Shown: one piece after another, positions 1 through 48,301 of the stretch
Numbering within the stretch: position 1 is the first letter of the stretch
How the letters are laid out: each line of letters starts with the position of its first letter
Sequence record: OL539447.1
Strand: one strand, 5' to 3'
Length of the DNA: 48,301 bases
Origin: Escherichia phage vB_ EcoD_Phleasolo
Translations under genes and position numbers: made by a program
The notes under the pieces: generated by a model
What the model saw: the letters and a program-made list of their open reading frames with translations, nothing else
The model's database searches: none
What the model was told of the DNA's origin: nothing

Positions 1-3
1 GCT

Positions 4-519
4 ATGTCAGAAGAGAAAAAGATTCACCAGAAGATAGGGAACTTCAAGGAGCTCTATAATAAGAAGTATGGCGACATTGCCAATCTGAAAATTAACCACA
101 AGTTCACGCCAGAGCAGGTGTTCGATTTGGCTGTTAAGTACTTCACGTGGGCAGAAGAACAAGCAATCAAAGCAATTGAGACGGCCAGCTTCCAGGGTAT
201 CGTAACTGAGAACCTTATTCACAAGCCGCGAGTATTTACGATAACTGGGTTCCAGCTGTTCTGCGGCGTAGGTCATAATGCTATCAGCAAGTGGCGCTCA
301 TCGCCTGGGTTCGATGAGGTCATGGAGTTCGTTGACTCGGTCATCTTTGAGCAGAAGTATCAGCTGGGTGTTAACAACATCGTCAACCCCGGACTGATTG
401 GCAAAGACCTTGGCATCGATAAGCCGCAAGAGGTTAACATCAACAATGCTTCTAATGCCGTGGTAAACGATGAGGAAGCAATGAAGGCCGCCCTGACTTC
501 GGTAATGGAAAAACTATGA
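4..519 (+). CDS. terminase small subunit (DNA-packaging protein)
   Basis: 171-aa ORF immediately upstream of the large terminase gene; assignment by size and position only. Confidence 0.5.
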   Translation: MSEEKKIHQKIGNFKELYNKKYGDIANLKINHKFTPEQVFDLAVKYFTWAEEQAIKAIETASFQGIVTENLIHKPRVFTITGFQLFCGVGHNAISKWRSSPGFDEVMEFVDSVIFEQKYQLGVNNIVNPGLIGKDLGIDKPQEVNINNASNAVVNDEEAMKAALTSVMEKL

Positions 520-616
520 AAATACTAAAATCTATACTGGCATACTACGTCCTTTCTTGCATGGCATTCACTAGCGGCTTTCTTATTGGTGTAATTATTG
601 GAGCAATAAAAAATCT

Positions 617-39367: not shown

Positions 39368-40951
39368 TCACCCCAGCAGTCGTGGATTAATGTAAACCTT
39401 ATCACCAATCAGGCAGGTGTAGTTTTTCTCATCAAGCATCGGAAGTAAATGGTCTTTAATCTTAGCCATTACGCCAGCCTGAGCCTCAAACGGTCTAACC
39501 TTACGTGCCGCTTCATAGAGTGATCGCAACCCCACCACTCCTTTACTGTTCTTTCCTTGCTTAATAAGAATATCAATTAGCTTGTTCATCTCTGCATTAT
39601 CACCAGCGTGACCAGCAGCATTAGCGGAAGACAAGTAAGTCTTACTCAGTTCTTCAAACATAAGAAGAGCTTCTTGCATCGTTTCAAGCCCAATCTCCCT
39701 GGACTTCTGCGGACTCCCTCCGTTTGGATTAAACCAGTTACGGATAGTGTGAAGAACTGCCGCTATCCTGATTACCTGCTTATCCATTTTACCTAACGCT
39801 CCGCGCAACATTGTGTGCGAGTACTTACCGCCATCTGCAAGGTGCGGCTCCATTTCCTGACGAGCACGGTTGAGGTGCTTCATTGCTGAATTACTGACAG
39901 TTAGTTTTACATCTTGCTCGCTCATTATTTCATGAACAAGACGAAAGTAATCTGCCTTTAATCCACCATCAATTGGTTTATATGTTGACTCGCCCTCATC
40001 ATCAACAAACACACGCTCACCAAGGAATGACTTCTCGCGCACAAGAAGGAAACGCTCTGATACACCGATACCGCGAGCGCCAGCATTCATGATTGCGACG
40101 ATTGTTTCATCCTGCGCAATTACAGAAATGCAACCCATAGCAATAAAGCTCATGTTGTTCTCTGCGTTCGCACGCGCGATAGATACGTTACCAGCATCCC
40201 AGGCCTTCAGAACAAGTTCGCTGTTAGTTTTCTTCGAGCCATCACCGTAAGTCATACCAAGAAGTGAGTTAACACTTGTCGCTTCATCAGAAATCACGGA
40301 GAAGTTGCCCTGGCGGTTGTTGATTCGCGCAAGACCTTCCGGGGTAGTATCAGATACCGGAAACACAATGTCGCACAGCTTTTCTAACTTCTCTTCCAAC
40401 TCCTCTTTATCTTCGAATAATCCAGCCATCTCAGATGGTGACTTCTCTTGCTTCATTTCTTTTGCCAGGGCTGACAATTTAGCCATAATCTTCTTACGGT
40501 CACGCTTGCGTAATTCGTTCAATCGCTCAGTCTCAGCAATCATTGGCGCTAGTGCGAGTGAGTTAATAGCTGACTTACCAGTTGATGGAGGCTGACTGGT
40601 TACTACGTACAGCGCGGTAGGCTGCTGAGTTCCATGATACTCAACCGTAAAGCGACCAAGCATTGCTGCTGAAATACACCCAAGGAAGTGCATGTAAGCT
40701 GAAGACTCTGGGAACTGAACTGAGCGTGCGATATTGCTTGATAATTTACCAACGACATCACAATCATTTCCTAGCGAGATGACCGGATATTTGTCACCAG
40801 TTGAATCAATTTCTACCGGAGCCTTCCAGAATGATGCACTCTGTCGATAACCATTGGCATTAATAGCAACTCGCAATGGTGGTAAATTTTCAGCTGCCGC
40901 AACAGACATTACTTGTTCGACTGATAATTTATCTTCGTTAAAATCAAACAT
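39368..40951 (-). CDS. P-loop NTPase (replication/defence-associated, family unresolved)
   Basis: 527 aa; Walker A-like SQPPSTGKS and Walker B-like FSVISDEA; its termini have a paralogous copy at 43257-43928. Confidence 0.45.
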   Translation of the reverse strand: MFDFNEDKLSVEQVMSVAAAENLPPLRVAINANGYRQSASFWKAPVEIDSTGDKYPVISLGNDCDVVGKLSSNIARSVQFPESSAYMHFLGCISAAMLGRFTVEYHGTQQPTALYVVTSQPPSTGKSAINSLALAPMIAETERLNELRKRDRKKIMAKLSALAKEMKQEKSPSEMAGLFEDKEELEEKLEKLCDIVFPVSDTTPEGLARINNRQGNFSVISDEATSVNSLLGMTYGDGSKKTNSELVLKAWDAGNVSIARANAENNMSFIAMGCISVIAQDETIVAIMNAGARGIGVSERFLLVREKSFLGERVFVDDEGESTYKPIDGGLKADYFRLVHEIMSEQDVKLTVSNSAMKHLNRARQEMEPHLADGGKYSHTMLRGALGKMDKQVIRIAAVLHTIRNWFNPNGGSPQKSREIGLETMQEALLMFEELSKTYLSSANAAGHAGDNAEMNKLIDILIKQGKNSKGVVGLRSLYEAARKVRPFEAQAGVMAKIKDHLLPMLDEKNYTCLIGDKVYINPRLLG

Positions 40952-41028
40952 CTTATTCTCTCTATTTGTTATCGATGGGTATAAATATACCCGCCGAAGC
41001 GGGTAGTGTCATTAACAAAAAGTGCTAT

Positions 41029-41382
41029 TTACTTATACTGAGCTTCAAACTTATACATCCCATAACCAACATCATAGCCAACTTCATCATCGCGAGTAAG
41101 TTGCCAGCCGTCACCTTCGTTGTCGTAGATGTAGCCAGCATTACGACCTAATCCAGCGTGCATGGAGACCTGGTAACGCTTACCTTCAGTAAATGATTTC
41201 TTGAGCGGATTGCTGTGGTCAACCCTGGTGCACAGTAGTGTCTTTGTCTTAATGTAGTGACCGTTCATGTCTATATTAACCCATTTGCCATCGACCTTAA
41301 TTTGTTCAACTCCATCTTTTGCTCGAGCTTTAAATAATTTGTTATCGCTGCTTACCCAGTTCTTTGTGATGGTAGTGGCCAT
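41029..41382 (-). CDS. hypothetical protein
   Basis: 117-aa ORF with RBS AAGGAAAG; promoter-like motif upstream. Confidence 0.4.
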   Translation of the reverse strand: MATTITKNWVSSDNKLFKARAKDGVEQIKVDGKWVNIDMNGHYIKTKTLLCTRVDHSNPLKKSFTEGKRYQVSMHAGLGRNAGYIYDNEGDGWQLTRDDEVGYDVGYGMYKFEAQYK

Positions 41383-41454
41383 TATTACTTTCCTTTTATG
41401 CGTGTCATTTCAGTGATTTCAATATACATCATAAGCCCCGAAGGGCTTTAACAA

Positions 41455-41613
41455 TTAGTGCTATTTCTTTGCTGCTTTTGCAATTGCTTTCTGAACAATG
41501 TCGAAACTCTCAATCAAATCTTCTTTAAAGTAGTCACCAACAGGCCAGCCCTTGCCGCTGTACTTTGCTATGGTTTCTAGATCGTAATAGTTCAAATCAG
41601 ATGGCTTAAGCAT
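41455..41613 (-). CDS. small hypothetical protein (52 aa)
   Basis: ATG overlaps the upstream stop (TAAATG); below the ORF-track cutoff. Confidence 0.3.
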
Positions 41614-41853
41614 TTATCTCACCTCATCAAAAGTGGCGATTCCAGGGATGAACATACCAACCTTCCAGCCAGCTATAGCAATCCACCCCGAATCGTGCTT
41701 GTGCGGACGCTCAGCGCCATTAATCACCCATTCGTTCGGGATTGTCTTACCGTTAATGATAAGCGGCTCAGCGTCGTATACAGAGTCTTTTACGAACGGT
41801 GTTAAAACCTTCTTATCCGTGCTTTGGATAACGTTAGTGCAGCGAATCTTCAT
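41614..41853 (-). CDS. hypothetical protein
   Basis: 79-aa ORF coupled to its neighbours. Confidence 0.4.
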   Translation of the reverse strand: MKIRCTNVIQSTDKKVLTPFVKDSVYDAEPLIINGKTIPNEWVINGAERPHKHDSGWIAIAGWKVGMFIPGIATFDEVR

Positions 41854-42107
41854 GCTAATACCTCGATTTCTTCTTCCGTAACGCTGAATTCTTCACCTTC
41901 ATAAACAGCCGTGATGCCATCAATTACAACATCGCGCTTCGCATCAATGAAGTACTCACCTTCAAGTTCAAACACCTCAACCTCTTCACCAACTTCATAG
42001 CCCATCTCAGCCAGGCTTAATGCATCTTCGTCAAACTTGATTTCGTTGTTGATAATAATCGCTTTCATCTGATATCTCCTCGTTGTCGATGTGATAACTA
42101 TAACCAA
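41850..42107 (-). CDS. small highly acidic protein (paralog of 46527-46739)
   Basis: 85 aa, about 25 Asp/Glu versus 5 Lys/Arg; first gene of the leftward unit leaving control region B. Confidence 0.4.
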   Translation of the reverse strand: MVIVITSTTRRYQMKAIIINNEIKFDEDALSLAEMGYEVGEEVEVFELEGEYFIDAKRDVVIDGITAVYEGEEFSVTEEEIEVLA

Positions 42108-42160
42108 TCAGGGCTGAATGGTCATTAGCAAAAAGTGCTATTCGTTCGATTTATGGATTG

Positions 42161-42257
42161 TTGCAGATATTGCAATGATTCACTTCACTATTGCATGTAT
42201 AGCAATATTGCATCGATTGCAATGATTTTCTGGACTGTTGCGAAATTTGCAATGATT
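42161..42257. repeat. iteron-like array: three or four copies of TTGCR-N5-TGCAA, each followed by TGATT
   Basis: Copies at 42161-42175, 42191-42205 (degenerate), 42208-42222 and 42238-42252, in the divergent intergenic region. Confidence 0.6.
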
Positions 42258-42682
42258 GATGGATTGATGGAATGAAGGAGGGCGCATCAACTAGTTGGTT
42301 GGTTTTAGCTTACACGAGGAGCTTTCCTTTATATACGCGTTATGGCTTGTTCAACCGTGTGGAGAAATTGCCATATTTACGCCATCCACGCCAGTTTACG
42401 CGCTGGTTACAAAATAAATCCCTTATATAACAACCTTTTAGATTTATTATTATTATTATTATTATATATGTTATCCCGTAACCATGATTATCCAAGATAT
42501 TGGTGATATTTTTTTGATATTGCGCGGCGCATAAAGATTTAGATAAAGAGATAGGGATGCAAGTGGGGTGGAGAAAATGGCTTAACAGACCATAACGGCA
42601 ATAACAGCCTTGATATGACTAGCGTCAGCATGTAACAATTTAGCATAACGTGCGATTACTGAGTTGAACGTGTAAATAATGC

Positions 42683-42710
42683 TTGCGACATTCACCCATC
42701 ATGGTAAGAT
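42683..42710 (+). promoter_or_regulatory. sigma70-like promoter candidate (TTGCGA-N16-TAAGAT)
   Basis: Hexamers read directly, about 30 nt upstream of the 42742 start. Confidence 0.3.
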
Positions 42711-42741
42711 GCTCTCACACTAAACGAGAGGAGTAGTAAAA

Positions 42742-43257
42742 ATGAGTAATACAATTCGTGAAGCAAACCCGACACTTGGCGACCTGGTGCGCCACCTTGT
42801 TAAGATGGCACTCAATTCAGAGGATGGAAGCGTAACAGTTCCCGTTAAGTTGCTTTACAAGAATCTTTACGGAGAAATTGATAACGGCTATGTAGCAGCC
42901 GACTTTAGACCTGGCGGCAAATATTCACTTCCAAAGCTTAAGGCTTCCTATGTTTCAAATACAGCCAGTAGAATGCAGGAAGTTAAAGACGCAGATAAGC
43001 GCGCAAGGTTCTCTTGTGGAGAGATGGATTATAATGGTGATGAGCATTATTGCGTAAAAATCACAATGGTCGACGGAGCTGTTAAGAATGGAACCCGAGC
43101 TAAGACAAGCAGTCAATTAGAGGAGAAAGCGGTAAGCGAGTTTAAAGCCAGGCTACTTAAGCTTTCCCCTAGCGTTGCAGGCATGAGTGGTGATGAACTT
43201 AAGGGCGCGGTAACTATGATTAACGCATATCAGGAAATGATTAAGGAGACTAAATAA
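42742..43257 (+). CDS. hypothetical protein
   Basis: 171-aa ORF with RBS GAGAGGAG; first gene of the rightward terminal unit. Confidence 0.4.
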   Translation: MSNTIREANPTLGDLVRHLVKMALNSEDGSVTVPVKLLYKNLYGEIDNGYVAADFRPGGKYSLPKLKASYVSNTASRMQEVKDADKRARFSCGEMDYNGDEHYCVKITMVDGAVKNGTRAKTSSQLEEKAVSEFKARLLKLSPSVAGMSGDELKGAVTMINAYQEMIKETK

Positions 43258-43928
43258 TGTTTGATTTCAAAGAGGATAAACTTACTTATGAGCAGGTGTT
43301 AGCAGCAGCAGCGGCAGACAATCTGCCTCCCTTGCGAGTATCAATAATTGCAAATGGTTACCGACAATCTGCAAATCTATGGCCTGAACTGGATAAGGTA
43401 TGGCGAATACAGTAATTTTTACATTGATGAGTGCGTTGAACTATATGAAGGATATGGCGAGCCAACTGCGTGCCATGGAGATGAGCTTGGTATCAGCTTT
43501 CCCGAAGAGCGTGAGGATTGATATATGACAAAGATTTCGAACTAGACACTGGAGCTTTAAAGATTATAGAAATCCTCATTAATCAAGGAATGAGCAGTAA
43601 AGGTGTCGTTGGTCTCGGGTCACTATATAATACAGTAAGGAAAGTTAAACCATTCGAAGGTAAAAGTGAAGTAATTATGGATATCAGAGATGTCATCATC
43701 CCAAACCTTGATAAGCTTGGCTATGCATGCCTAATCGGAGATAAGATTTACATCAACCCTAAACTGCTTGATGGCAACCAGGACTGGACTTACAAGGTTA
43801 AGCTGCTGGAAGATGATTTCAACATCGACGATTGCGAGAAGATTGTTGACGAGATTACTATCAAGGCAATTGATGAGCAAATCGAGAGGCTCAAGCGGAA
43901 GAAGAAGTACCTCCTGACCGGTAAATAG
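43257..43928 (+). pseudogene. internally deleted paralog of the 527-aa P-loop gene (N-terminal 52-aa ORF 43257-43415 plus C-terminal ORF 43518-43928)
   Basis: MFDFKEDKLTYEQVLAAAAADNLPPLRVSIIANGYRQSA matches the N-terminus of the 39368-40951 protein; ...KGVVGLGSLYNTVRKVKPFEG...YACLIGDKIYINPKLL matches its C-terminus; ATPase core absent. Confidence 0.45.
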
Positions 43929-43968
43929 CACGAATTGCTAAACCAGTTCCGCAGGGATGCGTTATAGT
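43926..43968 (+). promoter_or_regulatory. representative phage promoter unit: TAGCA-N5-TGCTA palindrome, 22-nt spacer with CGCA-GGGA-TGCG mini-palindrome, TATAGT -10
   Basis: Same architecture recurs about 16 times across the genome, followed by a conserved CATCGAAACGA leader. Confidence 0.5.
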
Positions 43969-44289
43969 TATTTCATCGAAACGAAATGGTTAATAGAGGA
44001 AGGCAAATGAGTTATTACGAAGTTATCGACACTGGCAATAAATCATTACTTGGCTCAAAGCGCTTTAAATGTACCGGCCAAGGGTTCACTGGATACGGCT
44101 TTGACGAGAAAGATGCCATCCTGGAATGGAAAGAAGCTAAATACATTGGGGAGTTCGACGAATGAAACACATTGGATGGCTGGTAAACGGAACGTTCTAC
44201 TCACTAACCGACGCAGTAAGGGTGGAAAGAATTAGAGTTAACTGCGGACGAAATGTCCAGATTCTTGAAATTTACGCAGAGGAGGAAGT

Positions 44290-44766
44290 ATGCGTAAGGT
44301 ACTGATGATATGCGTCTATGTTGCCATATTCTTATTGGCAAACCTCCTGGTAGCCTCATTTGGTCCAGCGGTAACTCCATTTAACGCACTTTTTCTTATA
44401 GCGGCAGACATGGTATTAAGGGACAGGATTCAGTTTGAGAGCGGTGCGGCATGGTCAATACTAGCATGCTTCCTTGCCGGATTTGCGACTGTATTAATAG
44501 CGCCAGGTTCAGAGATGATTGCTTTAGCATCTGGCCTATCATGCTTACTTGCTGGATCAGCTTCAGCGATTGCATTCAAATTAAAGTCTGGTGGATTTTT
44601 TCAGAAGGCGTTGCCAGCAAACGTAATTGCTGCTGCGGTAGATTCAATTGCATTCCCATTAATTGCTTTCGGGTCTATAATGCCAGGCATAACAGCAGCC
44701 CAGTTTGCCGCTAAAACTATTGGCGCATCAATCATACTATTAATCATAAGGAAATTATCTAAGTGA
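44290..44766 (+). CDS. small polytopic inner-membrane protein (possible precursor transporter; family unverified)
   Basis: 158 aa with 4-5 hydrophobic helices; RBS GGAGG; stop overlaps the next gene's GTG start (GTGA). Confidence 0.4.
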   Translation: MRKVLMICVYVAIFLLANLLVASFGPAVTPFNALFLIAADMVLRDRIQFESGAAWSILACFLAGFATVLIAPGSEMIALASGLSCLLAGSASAIAFKLKSGGFFQKALPANVIAAAVDSIAFPLIAFGSIMPGITAAQFAAKTIGASIILLIIRKLSK

Positions 44767-45593
44767 CAATTCACTTCCATGGCTCCCCTATAACGGGGGG
44801 CAAGGGCGATGCACTTGCTCGGACCGCGTATACAAATGGCGGTGCTTTCGTGTCATTCGCCCACCCGCAGCAGATAGAATTGGCGTTTAAGGTAGCGAAT
44901 GCAGTATGCATAGATAATGGTGCGTTCTCTAAGAAGAATAGCGGCAAAGCTACTGACTGGCATAAATTCTATAATGACTTTTTACCCAGATTTATCGACA
45001 GAGAAAAGTTACGATTCTTTGTTATACCTGATGATATCAGCGGGTGCGACAAAGAGAACGACAGATTAATAAGCGAACTTCCATTACACCTAAAGCACAA
45101 AGGAGCTCCAGTCTGGCATATGCATGAGAGCTTAGACAGGCTAGTCCACCTTGCCAACGAGTGGGAATACATGTGTATAGGCTCGTCAGGCGAGTACTAC
45201 TCTATCCGTTCAGAGAAATGGAAGCGGCGCATGAATGATGCCTTTAACGCTCTAATTCAGAGGGGCTACTCAGCAAAAATTCACGGCCTCAGAATGCTGG
45301 ATGGTCGAGTTCTTGGCAACTACCCACTGGATCAGGCTGACTCAACAAACCTGGCTATTAATGCGCCTAAGTGGATATGCAAATATATAGATATGACCAT
45401 TGAGGCGTGCCGAGCTCAGACTCACAGAGACGCATGGATTTCAACCTCAGATCCGAAGTTTGCACTTGAGCAATTAATCGCAGACGGCGGCACAAGGGAG
45501 CAGATGCTGGCACAGAGATGCGCGATACTCAGGAATTGCATAGAAGCAGTAAGGCCACCATCAAGGGATTCATGGAATAGCACGAATTGCTAA
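44763..45593 (+). CDS. hypothetical enzyme (possible TGT/DpdA-like base-exchange enzyme)
   Basis: 276 aa; VCIDNGAFS resembles the TGT substrate-pocket motif (TDSGGFQ); no CxCxxC zinc site seen; coupled to the upstream membrane protein. Confidence 0.3.
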   Translation: MTIHFHGSPITGGKGDALARTAYTNGGAFVSFAHPQQIELAFKVANAVCIDNGAFSKKNSGKATDWHKFYNDFLPRFIDREKLRFFVIPDDISGCDKENDRLISELPLHLKHKGAPVWHMHESLDRLVHLANEWEYMCIGSSGEYYSIRSEKWKRRMNDAFNALIQRGYSAKIHGLRMLDGRVLGNYPLDQADSTNLAINAPKWICKYIDMTIEACRAQTHRDAWISTSDPKFALEQLIADGGTREQMLAQRCAILRNCIEAVRPPSRDSWNSTNC

Positions 45594-45644
45594 ACAATAA
45601 ATCGGGTAGTCAGCTATGATTACCCTATCAACAACGAAGAGGAA

Positions 45645-45863
45645 ATGATTATGGATACTGGAATTTTACGCATTGACGATGTTCACTTTGACCAGGCTGA
45701 GGTCAGTGTCACCAAGTTAACCTTTCGAGGTAATGTTGTTAGCCTTGACTTCGATCCTGACGACTACGGCGACGGTCAAACACTTATGCAATACTCACCT
45801 GTTGCGGCCCGCAAATTAGCGGCGGCATTAATCCTGGCGGCAGAAGAGGCGGAAGAGCAATGA
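45645..45863 (+). CDS. hypothetical protein
   Basis: 72-aa ORF with RBS GAAGAGGAA. Confidence 0.4.
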   Translation: MIMDTGILRIDDVHFDQAEVSVTKLTFRGNVVSLDFDPDDYGDGQTLMQYSPVAARKLAAALILAAEEAEEQ

Positions 45864-46099
45864 TTACCATTAACCTGTCTTATGAACAAGCTGCAGAGCT
45901 AAAAGATATAATGCAGCACTCACTCATTAACAAGAATTATAGCTGCACAGAGGTGCTATCAGAAGCGATTACACAGATTCAGAACCAACAGATAGCTGAC
46001 GATGATGAACTCCCATGGGACACTGATACCGCCTGGAGCCGATACGAGCAGATTTGCACAGCGCTATCAGGTTGTCAGCTGGCTAGCCAATACAAATGA
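45860..46099 (+). CDS. hypothetical protein
   Basis: 79-aa ORF coupled to the upstream gene. Confidence 0.4.
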   Translation: MITINLSYEQAAELKDIMQHSLINKNYSCTEVLSEAITQIQNQQIADDDELPWDTDTAWSRYEQICTALSGCQLASQYK

Positions 46100-46217
46100 C
46101 AATATACGAACACAAATTCAGTAGCAGGGGTATTGATATGCTCCTGCATTATGTAGACGAGAGATACGCCATGTTGATGCAGAAGACGCATGGCGGCACA
46201 ATAACGAGGATTGAGAT

Positions 46218-46469
46218 ATGAAGATTCATAGCAAGTACAACCGAGAGATTATCGGCCTGGATGGAACGTTAACGACAGTCGATGTATATCGTGTTCTGGA
46301 TGCATTCCAGGTAACAGACCCAGCAATTCAGCACGCAATCAAGAAAATGCTCTGTACTGGGTTGCGAGGCCACAAGGATTACCTCACCGACATTGATGAC
46401 TCAATAGAATCACTTAGGAAAGCAAAGGAGCTTTACGGTCAGAAGAAGATAAATAGCACGAATTGCTAA
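46218..46469 (+). CDS. hypothetical protein
   Basis: 83-aa ORF; ends ...NSTNC via the palindromic motif. Confidence 0.4.
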   Translation: MKIHSKYNREIIGLDGTLTTVDVYRVLDAFQVTDPAIQHAIKKMLCTGLRGHKDYLTDIDDSIESLRKAKELYGQKKINSTNC

Positions 46470-46526
46470 ACATCAATCGCAGGGATGCGTTACTATTACT
46501 AAATCGAAACGAACTAGGAAGAAGAA

Positions 46527-46739
46527 ATGAAAATTAAAATTATCGATGTTGATTATGTTACTGATGACGAGTCTATCACGCTTCGCGAATGCGGCTTCGA
46601 GATTGGCGATGTTGTAGAGGTGTCTGGTAAGTACAACAACGGAGAGCTTTCAATCCAGGCAATCCGTGAGACTGATTTTGTTAATGTTGGCAATGAGGTT
46701 AGTATAAGCGAATTTGAATATGAGGTAGTGGAAGAATGA
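46527..46739 (+). CDS. small highly acidic protein (paralog of 41850-42107)
   Basis: 70 aa, 17 Asp/Glu versus 5 Lys/Arg; similar N-terminus MKIKIIDVDY... to the other copy. Confidence 0.4.
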   Translation: MKIKIIDVDYVTDDESITLRECGFEIGDVVEVSGKYNNGELSIQAIRETDFVNVGNEVSISEFEYEVVEE

Positions 46740-46985
46740 AACCCTCTGAGTGGTGCAAAAAGATGATGGATGAGGCAAAAGACGGCGAGGAGGCGATGAC
46801 ATACTTTGAGTTGATGAATATGTGGCGTGAGCGCGAGGAGAAGAAATCGTGATTTGGATTCACACGTACTATACTGGCAAGTTCAATAGCGTAATGCACA
46901 AGAGGATGTATGACAGCTATGAAGCAGCAAAAGCACAACACGCAGTTCTCGGTGGCGACATTCAATCTTACAAGAAGGCTTAATT

Positions 46986-47225
46986 ATGTTCGGACTTACT
47001 CAACCGCAATTCAATGCAGTGCGCGCCCAGGCTAAGAAGCTAAACGAGGCAGTGGATAAGCTAACAGCCAAGCAGAAGCAGGATAACGATATCATGAAGG
47101 CAGTTATCTGTGAGTTCCATAGCCCGGTCAGTACAATCATCGAGAAGATGCGGTTCGTCTGGGTTGCTGGTTATCTGGCTGGCCGCGTTGGTAAGCGTGA
47201 AGATGGGAGTAATATCTATGATTAA
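46986..47225 (+). CDS. hypothetical protein
   Basis: 79-aa ORF. Confidence 0.4.
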   Translation: MFGLTQPQFNAVRAQAKKLNEAVDKLTAKQKQDNDIMKAVICEFHSPVSTIIEKMRFVWVAGYLAGRVGKREDGSNIYD

Positions 47226-47418
47226 TCCATTCAAGAGTTTCGCTGTTTCTATGGGATGGACTTGCAGGAAGCATGTATTCGTACTCTTTAGGCATATCAA
47301 GTGGTATGAGATTGAGTACTACCGCAAAGGATATAGAAGTAAGCTGGTATGTCGCAATTGCAATAAAATGATTTACTCTAAGATTGATTTTAATGATAAA
47401 TTTGGATTGCCACTATGA
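47218..47418 (+). CDS. hypothetical Cys-containing protein
   Basis: 66 aa from ATG 47218 (track ORF 47110 opens with GTG inside the upstream gene); contains CxxC. Confidence 0.35.
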   Translation: MINPFKSFAVSMGWTCRKHVFVLFRHIKWYEIEYYRKGYRSKLVCRNCNKMIYSKIDFNDKFGLPL

Positions 47419-47675
47419 CTGAACTATCAATATGGTTCCTGGCTGGCATGCTGACTTGGATTTATTTCGTGGTCATGGCTTGACTCAAATGTTTAATATG
47501 GTTAGTATTAAACACGTAGACGGCAATGACCGTAACGCGCATCGCGGAGATGAAAGCCGATAGCCGGGCTGGATAAAGATACGAGGCAACTACCGCATCG
47601 CCAAAAGCAAAGTGTAAGTCGGACTTGCGGAGCATTGTGAAAGCTCGCCGGATTCCGTAACCGGCACCTATTCAA

Positions 47676-47751
47676 GTTCTGTTAGTGTAAGTGGACAGCA
47701 CGAAGACCTCCTAAGTCTTAGGTACTGGTTCAAGTCCAGTGCGGAACGCCA
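47676..47751 (+). tRNA. tRNA-Arg (anticodon CCT)
   Basis: Hand-folded cloverleaf: acceptor GTTCTGT/GCGGAAC (two G-U pairs), D stem GTGT/GCAC with GG loop, anticodon stem AAGAC/GTCTT with loop CT-CCT-AA, T arm ACTGG-TTCAAGT-CCAGT, encoded CCA. Confidence 0.7.
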
Positions 47752-47756
47752 AATAT

Positions 47757-47858
47757 GCTCACGTTGCTAATGTTGGCCTAAGGGTGGAGCTTATACCTCC
47801 ATAAAGCAATCACCAGATAAGTGATGTAACGCAGGTTCGATTCCTGCCGTGAGCACCA
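47757..47858 (+). tRNA. tRNA-like element, non-canonical length (identity unresolved)
   Basis: Canonical T arm GCAGG-TTCGATT-CCTGC, 3' CGTGAGC-A-CCA and a perfect complementary GCTCACG 102 nt upstream; two internal 5-bp hairpins; no clean D arm. Confidence 0.3.
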
Positions 47859-47874
47859 ATCATGGAGCATCCTA

Positions 47875-48060
47875 GTGAATAACTACGAAGTCCGTTTAAC
47901 TTCCCGCCTAATGGGCAGGCAATGCAAATCTTGCCAGCAATCCTACGAAGGTAGGTTCCCTGCTAACAGCCCTGAAGAAGCAGTTGCAGCCGCAAAGGCA
48001 GCATTTAAGATTGACCTGACGGTTCACAAAGTCAGCGTTGATAAAGTATCCCTCGTTTGA
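47875..48060 (+). CDS. hypothetical protein
   Basis: 61-aa ORF with GGAG RBS; contains CxxC; followed by a terminator. Confidence 0.4.
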   Translation: MNNYEVRLTSRLMGRQCKSCQQSYEGRFPANSPEEAVAAAKAAFKIDLTVHKVSVDKVSLV

Positions 48061-48088
48061 GATTGGTAATCTCGCAATGTAGTGTTTC

Positions 48089-48112
48089 GCCCTCCTCGTG
48101 AGGGCTTTTTTT
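48089..48112 (+). terminator. rho-independent terminator
   Basis: GCCCTC-CTCGT-GAGGGC hairpin plus T7 run. Confidence 0.65.
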
Positions 48113-48301
48113 CGTCTCTACTCATGGTACAATGACTTTTAAAACAGGAGGAATGACAATGACAGGCTATCAACCAAAACCACACGATGGCGAAATAAAA
48201 CCACCGCCAAGGAGACCTTGATGATTGAGTCTATAGCATCAATATTTGGGGTTATTGTCGGATTTACTATAATTTACAACATCTGGAAGATTAGGAGTTA
48301 A

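Follow-up and report, generated by a model that had tools for sequence, protein, structure and literature searches.

The sequence record of Escherichia phage vB_EcoD_Phleasolo (OL539447.1, 48,301 nucleotides, analysed over its full length and referred to here as the window) contains, on its plus strand between positions 43257 and 43928, a single gene of the family PHROG 7327 that is split at codon 48 in the window only. The split is due to a displaced block of 129 bp. The gene is annotated as OPT79_66 in Klebsiella phage vB_KpnD_Opt-79 (OL539453.1) and is called the mini-gene below; both its termini are shared with a 527-residue protein encoded nearby on the opposite strand, which we identified as a DUF3987 helicase. 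The account that we consider probable, while leaving it a real chance of being wrong, joins three elements: one conserved helicase-derived gene, an artefactual split in the window, and a product that would be a free-standing docking-module paralog modulating recruitment or loading of the helicase.

A single gene interrupted by a displaced block

Open reading frame (ORF) calling in the window gave a frame of 52 amino acids at 43257-43415 and a frame of 136 amino acids at 43518-43928, the latter with a TTG start, both on the plus strand. The initial annotation took these for two separate short ORFs with 100 bp of non-coding DNA between them; the ORFs are present at the stated coordinates, but as biology neither description was borne out. 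A megablast search of phage records returned Opt-79, whose total length is equal to that of the window (48,301 bp), and in this record the region is annotated as one coding sequence (CDS) of 180 amino acids (42641-43183). When the two parts in the window were rejoined, the resulting ORF matched the catalogued family PHROG 7327 (phrog_7327, profile length 179) over the whole profile, with residues 1-180 aligned to positions 1-179 of 179 (E 9.8e-76). The interrupted fragments matched positions 1-49 and 49-179 of the same profile; no part of the gene was lost and 129 nt were added. The ATG of the mini-gene is preceded, 8 nt upstream, by the Shine-Dalgarno sequence AAGGAG. The rejoined ORF also cross-matched the helicase family phrog_2373, at its termini only. 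We saw no other member of PHROG 7327 with such a split. The copy in Escherichia phage ETEP102 is disrupted differently, by a point nonsense codon, and offers a parallel to the window's split that is either natural or a sequencing error. For annotation and downstream analysis the uninterrupted 543-bp gene should be used; the two ORFs and their spacer do not represent phage biology.

Comparison of whole genomes by BLASTN revealed that the window is OL539453.1 rotated by 616 bp, with one block of 129 bp moved 2.7 kb upstream (Table 1). The rotation and the displacement, the latter visible at both the insertion site and the donor scar, were the only differences between the two sequences; the window opens 3 nt ahead of the gene for the small terminase. 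Two near-twins of Opt-79, Opt-719 and Sadiya, matched the window at 100% identity in the megablast search, and in all three phages the window aligned in two pieces, with a record span that was 129 bp shorter. Phage AKS96 (91.5% DNA identity) likewise lacked the block, with a gap of 129/130 bp relative to the window. The supposed non-coding spacer is therefore a displaced piece of another gene. This piece is exactly one mechanical ORF running from ATG to TGA (42 codons plus stop), is out of frame with its source gene OPT79_73 (OL539453.1 45473-45607, phrog_29823), and breaks codon 48 of OPT79_66 between its second and third bases. With a length divisible by three, it leaves the two plus-strand ORFs in one frame, and several stop codons in the frame of the mini-gene lie within it, between 43413 and 43517.

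At the junctions of the block we found neither a duplicated target site nor terminal inverted repeats, any microhomology was too slight to be of use, and there were no matched take-off and landing codons. No Rfam family matched at E ≤ 1 in the interval 43100-44100 of the window. The truncated 52-residue product was found on no public contig, and an exact-junction search of IMG/VR matched neither the interrupted nor the native junction and was thus uninformative. At the donor site, OPT79_73 (44 amino acids) retains only its first four codons (MKIH), which are now in frame with codon 2 of the adjoining gene OPT79_74, and the resulting fusion MKIH+SKYNREI... stands in place of the start native to OPT79_74. 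OPT79_73 is flanked by a 15/16 direct repeat, GAGGATTGA(G/T)ATATGA (window 46206-46221 and 43513-43528; OL539453.1 45590-45605 region), which spans the ribosome-binding site, stop and start at the 72/73 and 73/74 gene junctions of OL539453.1. Natural loss of OPT79_73 through this repeat could occur. Repeat-mediated natural deletion was rejected for the donor site, because the end points of the displaced block differ from the repeats. Because the boundaries run cleanly from ORF to ORF, the genome length has not changed and identity is otherwise perfect, the displacement is more likely an in-silico, editing or assembly artefact than a natural event, or at most a private rearrangement.

Table 1. 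Positions of the features described in the text, in the window and, where aligned, in Opt-79
Feature	Window	Strand	OL539453.1	Identity	Details
5' part of mini-gene	43257-43399	+	42641-42783	100%	codons 1-47 and two bases of codon 48
Module common with helicase N-terminus	43257-43382	+			codons 1-42
3' part of mini-gene	43529-43928	+			third base of codon 48 to stop
Winged-helix module	43560-43769	+			codons 59-128
Family-specific tail with long helix	43770-43925	+			stop codon at 43926-43928
Displaced block	43400-43528		45486-45614	identical	129 bp; whole-genome BLASTN
Aligned block 1	1-616		47686-48301	100%	whole-genome BLASTN
Aligned block 2	617-43399		1-42783	100%	whole-genome BLASTN
Aligned block 3	43529-46230		42784-45485	100%	whole-genome BLASTN
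Aligned block 4	46230-48301		45614-47685	100%	whole-genome BLASTN
Donor scar	46218-46469	+			129 bp absent between window 46230 and 46231
OPT79_57, 527 amino acids	39368-40951	-			DUF3987 MCM-like superfamily 6 (SF6) AAA+ replicative helicase; PF13148, phrog_2373, AlphaFold2 (AF2) model, Foldseek
DUF7174 gene OPT79_65, 171 amino acids	42742-43257	+			PF23796, E 4.4e-49; phrog_4841
Three exact TTGCAATGATT repeats and ATTGCA half-sites	42148-42270	.			divergent intergenic region of the helicase and DUF7174/mini-gene operons

Descent from a DUF3987 helicase and maintenance of the short form

The initial annotation had described the region as an inverted, internally deleted second copy of the 527-residue P-loop protein, and as a statement of ancestry this was right. 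Analysis of the parent (OPT79_57) placed it as an ordinary DUF3987 member. PF13148 matched residues 81-433 (E 5.5e-42, 144.7 bits against a gathering cutoff of 27), and the match to phrog_2373, named 'DNA helicase', had an E value of 2.5e-256. A Walker A motif (QPPSTGKS, 120-127) and a Walker B motif (ISDE, 220-223) were present, with Q120, P121, P122, G125, K126, S127 and E223 invariant across 39 helicase homologs. The AF2 model of the protein (pLDDT 89.4, pTM 0.87) comprises a three-helix N-terminal module at residues 11-41 and a C-terminal winged helix at about 451-526, with an H-E-H-H-E-E topology at 451-521; lower-confidence linkers (residues 42-65) tether the terminal modules. The top 50 Foldseek matches of this model in the PDB were essentially all MCM subunits, with probability 1.00. 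DUF3987 proteins have been assigned to the SF6, MCM-like replicative helicases with a winged helix-turn-helix domain at the C-terminus (PMC4889955), and a distant PriCT-DUF3987 protein has biochemically demonstrated 5'-3' helicase activity and binds its primase (PMC11724360). The MCM-only fold matches agree with that assignment and with that biochemistry. By sequence and model the parent is an SF6 MCM-like replicative helicase, having the Pfam match, both Walker motifs, the MCM-like fold and the C-terminal winged helix of the class, and unwinding activity is predicted for it. Searched by sequence against the PDB, the helicase, the profile of the short family and the DUF7174 protein encoded next to the mini-gene gave nothing meaningful, and an NCBIfam search gave no meaningful match.

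Alignment of the full-length protein with the two fragments revealed similarity far beyond chance. In BLASTP, 31 of 42 residues were identical between the helicase and the ORF at 43257-43415 (74%; residues 1-42 of both; E 2e-21), and 42 of 70 between helicase residues 457-526 and residues 15-84 of the ORF at 43518-43928 (60%; E 3e-27), in agreement with the earlier statement that the first ~40 and last ~75 residues of the helicase are matched. A profile-profile comparison of the two families returned the C-terminal module with 99.7% probability (E 9e-26). In the rejoined protein, residues 1-42 correspond to helicase 1-42 and residues ~41-129 to helicase 439-527, so that helicase residues ~43-438, some 396 residues of the AAA+ core, are missing. 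The absence of the ATPase core had been noted in the initial annotation and was confirmed: PF13148, which covers most of the helicase, had no match in the short gene, and no Pfam family matched the rejoined 180-residue protein at E ≤ 0.1. Because it lacks both the AAA+ core and the PF13148 match, the mini-protein falls outside DUF3987 and can be neither a helicase nor an ATPase. What it shares with the SF6 helicases by descent is the first 42 and last ~88 residues. Beyond these it has a conserved tail of its own that the helicase does not have; the novel tail was correctly recognised before, at a length of 55 residues where we count about 52. The distance between the two genes (2.3 kb from the helicase start at 40951 to 43257) was also as first given. 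These alignments indicate that the mini-gene descends from a duplicate of the helicase that lost the whole AAA+ core. This paralogy is not described in the DUF3987 literature examined, in a partial search.

A search of 5.8 billion proteins yielded 69 homologs of the mini-gene, all 168-191 amino acids long, with identity down to 36%. Their alignment revealed an almost invariant N-terminal module (MFDFxEDKLTxEQ..LPPLRVAINANGYRQSxxFW), a second conserved module (KGVVGxRSLYEAxRKVKPF...CLIGDKIYxxP) and a conserved motif in the tail (EVExAIxFYRKAKxLLxG); the N-terminal module was the best-conserved part of the protein (0.88 bits entropy). A hidden Markov model search of 1.84 billion cluster representatives gave only 68 matches, which were short forms of 164-185 amino acids, fragments of genes, and DUF3987 helicases of T1-like type, the last matched at the termini. 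Judged by these searches, the family is confined to the T1-like phage lineage. The N-terminal and winged-helix modules were contiguous, as in the short gene, in at least 111 of 779 helicase-bearing phage records, spread over Rogunavirinae and Braunvirinae, and the mini-gene is an early gene of T1-like phages of the E. coli type. Gene order was the same in Rogunavirinae (AKS96, phiKP26, e4/1c) and Braunvirinae (AugustePiccard, 12397IV): the helicase, a divergent intergenic region of ~0.6 kb, and then, on the strand opposite to the helicase, the DUF7174 gene followed by the short gene.

To assess selection, the ratio of non-synonymous to synonymous substitution rates (dN/dS) was calculated for five ortholog pairs of the short gene, giving values of 0.21, 0.49, 0.38, 0.34 and 0.20; helicase ortholog pairs gave 0.01-0.05. 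The short-gene values indicate purifying selection, by which the protein sequence of the modules is maintained. Between the short gene and the helicase, nucleotide identity in the shared modules was 62-75%, the longest exact nucleotide match was 10-14 nt, dS was saturated, and the similarity of the two genes was not elevated within genomes. Because dS is saturated, nucleotide identity low and within-genome similarity not elevated, the duplication and deletion must be old. On the same grounds (62-75% identity, exact matches of at most 14 nt, no within-genome elevation), a role of the pair in gene conversion or as an inverted-repeat recombination substrate was rejected. In a neighbour-joining tree of 112 shared residues, too poorly resolved to count deletion events, the short forms fell among helicases of Rogunavirinae and Braunvirinae type, a placement that fits an origin inside the T1-like lineage.

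The broken frame in the window could also be read as a real property of the phage, in one of two ways. The gene might be a decaying pseudogene, a dead and internally deleted helicase duplicate whose ORFs are leftover open stretches, which is one of the two outcomes that the initial annotation had allowed for. The stop codons inside the gene, the poor TTG start of the C-terminal piece, the nonsense codon in ETEP102 and a non-synonymous evolution that, relative to synonymous change, is ~4-30 times faster than in the helicase would all fit decay. The break is, however, due solely to the displaced block, which is found neither in OL539453.1 nor in any relative, and the constant length of the protein down to 36% identity, its dN/dS of 0.2-0.5, the strong conservation of the N-terminal module, and the synteny and overlapping start codon kept in more than 100 phages do not suit a dead gene. 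For the family, decay is thus largely refuted, and we regard it as very improbable overall; the other outcome, in which terminal modules are kept and may contact partners of the full-length protein, is the one favoured by the PHROG 7327 match, the occurrence in at least 111 records, the constant length and the dN/dS values. Alternatively, the block might be a genuine insertion: an intron, a tiny mobile cassette, or a translational bypass element of the kind known from T4 gene 60, with the split gene still yielding one protein. A length that keeps both halves in frame would serve such an element, and the unchanged genome length is what cut-and-paste movement would leave. Against this, the junctions show none of the duplications, terminal repeats or take-off and landing codons of such elements, and no intron or RNA family from Rfam; the block is an out-of-frame piece of an ordinary conserved phrog_29823 gene, bounds exactly a mechanical ATG-to-TGA ORF, decapitates OPT79_73 by its move, and occurs in none of the public relatives, and the truncated product is on no public contig. 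We therefore consider a genuine insertion scarcely credible.

A putative docking function for the helicase-derived modules

The AF2 model of the mini-protein (pLDDT 80) contains the same N-terminal helices as the helicase model (11-21, 25-33 and 36-41 in both), a winged helix (H55-71, E74-76, H77-84, H96-111, E114-117, E120-123) and a long helix in the tail (147-178). The winged helix shows the topology H1-S1-H2-H3-S2-S3, resembles known winged-helix domains in structure and was closest to the ORC/Cdc6 clade. The module is basic in both proteins, with an isoelectric point of 9.2 in the mini-protein and 9.7 in the helicase. On the model, the C-terminal module is a winged helix of ORC/Cdc6/MCM type, and binding of DNA or of a partner is predicted. 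ORC-Cdc6 and Cdt1 use the C-terminal winged-helix domains of MCM2-7 as handles when they recruit and load this helicase in eukaryotes (PMC7979726). The phage domain differs from these loader-docking and origin-binding winged helices of MCM, ORC and Cdc6 in having no sequence similarity to them and in occurring also as a separate paralogous gene. The winged helix of archaeal Orc1/Cdc6 contacts origin DNA, and winged-helix domains of the ORC/Cdc6 clade make contacts with both DNA and protein.

Because the terminal modules of the helicase are tethered by linkers and their MCM and ORC counterparts serve as docking elements, we propose that the mini-protein reproduces, as a separate molecule, the two docking modules that are flexibly tethered in the helicase. 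It would bind the same ligand as the helicase termini, be it DNA at the origin or a protein partner (initiator, loader or primase), and would modulate recruitment or loading of the helicase early in infection, whether by competing or by acting as an adaptor. Dimerisation would probably fall to the tail helix. This function, argued by analogy, is a tentative proposal to which we give somewhat less than an even chance. The mini-gene appears to lie in an early rightward operon with a good ribosome-binding site, and its expression is predicted to be coupled to that of the DUF7174 gene.

Truncated forms that keep binding domains without the catalytic or activating part include the papillomavirus repressors E2-TR and E8^E2, Tn5 Inh and T7 gp4B. 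Like them, the mini-protein shares modules with a full-length enzyme, so that competition or co-assembly would be possible. Those forms are products of the same gene, made through internal starts or splicing; the mini-gene, unlike them, is a separate, inverted and anciently diverged gene in which both termini are kept and the middle is deleted. A bolder version of the docking proposal, which we think rather improbable, is that a dimeric "headless" helicase paralog together with co-translated DUF7174 marks the origin (possibly the TTGCAATGATT array described below) or titrates a loader in T1-like phages. If true, the headless paralog would be the bacterial-virus counterpart of MCM recruitment by winged-helix domains and would reveal an initiation system of the Drexlerviridae.

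The same modules could serve other ends. The mini-protein might be a stand-alone DNA-binding regulator, an early transcription factor or operator binder that would act through its basic winged helix and a dimerising helix on the divergent promoter region without direct interplay with the helicase. The adjacent control region does hold a conserved array of the 11-mer TTGCAATGATT, which recurs in the equivalent intergenic region of all seven related phages fetched, and such an array would offer a target. This explanation leaves open why conservation in the protein peaks in the 42-residue N-terminal module that it has in common with the helicase; the repeats are tied to neither protein by evidence, and the ORC/Cdc6 clade that is nearest to the winged helix uses DNA and protein contacts alike. 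A regulator of this kind therefore seems unlikely to us. An anti-defence decoy, which would present the exposed helicase termini so as to sequester a host factor detecting the phage helicase (an immune sensor or an inhibitor), would account for a gene that is accessory and patchy (at least 111 of 779 records), evolves faster than the helicase and sits in the early region amid small ORFs of host-takeover type; accessory, patchy and fast-evolving early genes are a pattern typical of counter-defence. However, the modules are under purifying and not diversifying selection, no homology to known anti-defence proteins was seen (PADLOC and anti-defence libraries were uninformative or not queried), and we know of no host sensor of DUF3987 helicases. 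We hold a decoy role to be highly doubtful.

Several points weigh against the combined account of an artefactual split and a docking paralog. That the displacement is an artefact is deduced from its form and its uniqueness, and a real arrangement would amount to a private rearrangement by which two genes are inactivated. The proposed function draws on the sharing of domains and the analogy with MCM. About 86% of helicase-bearing T1-like records are without the mini-gene, which is therefore accessory. In ETEP102 (Escherichia phage, OR979723.1, 1427-1987) the ortholog, annotated as two CDS (1427-1540 and 1568-1987), has an in-frame stop at codon 38, and this nonsense codon makes the gene dispensable at least in culture.

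As a conserved early protein built of the helicase terminal modules, the mini-protein is a ready-made probe for the ligand of these modules in T1-like phages (Drexlerviridae, which include common coliphages and Klebsiella phages), and the mini-gene a handle on their replication initiation and DUF3987 helicase loading. The BASEL phage AugustePiccard has the same gene pair and offers a tractable system.

Neighbouring genes and the intergenic control region

In the window the stop codon of the DUF7174 gene overlaps the ATG of the mini-gene (TAATG), and in every phage for which both coordinates were listed the DUF7174 gene ended 0-9 nt upstream of the mini-gene. This spacing suggests that the two genes are probably translationally coupled, and the pair has the look of an early cassette of two genes. 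The DUF7174 gene was present in 135 phage records, compared with at least 111 for the mini-gene; in Rogue1 it was present and the mini-gene query matched helicase places only. No mention of DUF7174 was found in the literature searched.

The TTGCAATGATT copies in the divergent intergenic region, at 42170, 42217 and 42247, are the only exact ones in the genome, and ATTGCA/TGCAATATTGCA half-palindromes lie alongside them. Their arrangement and recurrence make the array a candidate operator or iteron cluster; that it is the ligand of the winged-helix modules is speculative. Promoter and terminator scans around the mini-gene gave results at chance level. About eight ATT repeats are found at 42446-42470 in the same intergenic control region.

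At the donor site, the gene OPT79_74 (46218-46469 region, ~80 amino acids), annotated as 'putative terminase ATPase subunit', matched only the C-terminal ~75 positions of longer PHROGs (phrog_2452, 150-224 of 235; phrog_17613 'ATPase', 169-244 of 246). A comparison of OPT79_72-74 with the P-loop NTPase bas01_0069 of AugustePiccard revealed no similarity. The GenBank product name of OPT79_74 looks unfounded, and from its partial profile matches the gene may be another truncated remnant or a domain-only gene.

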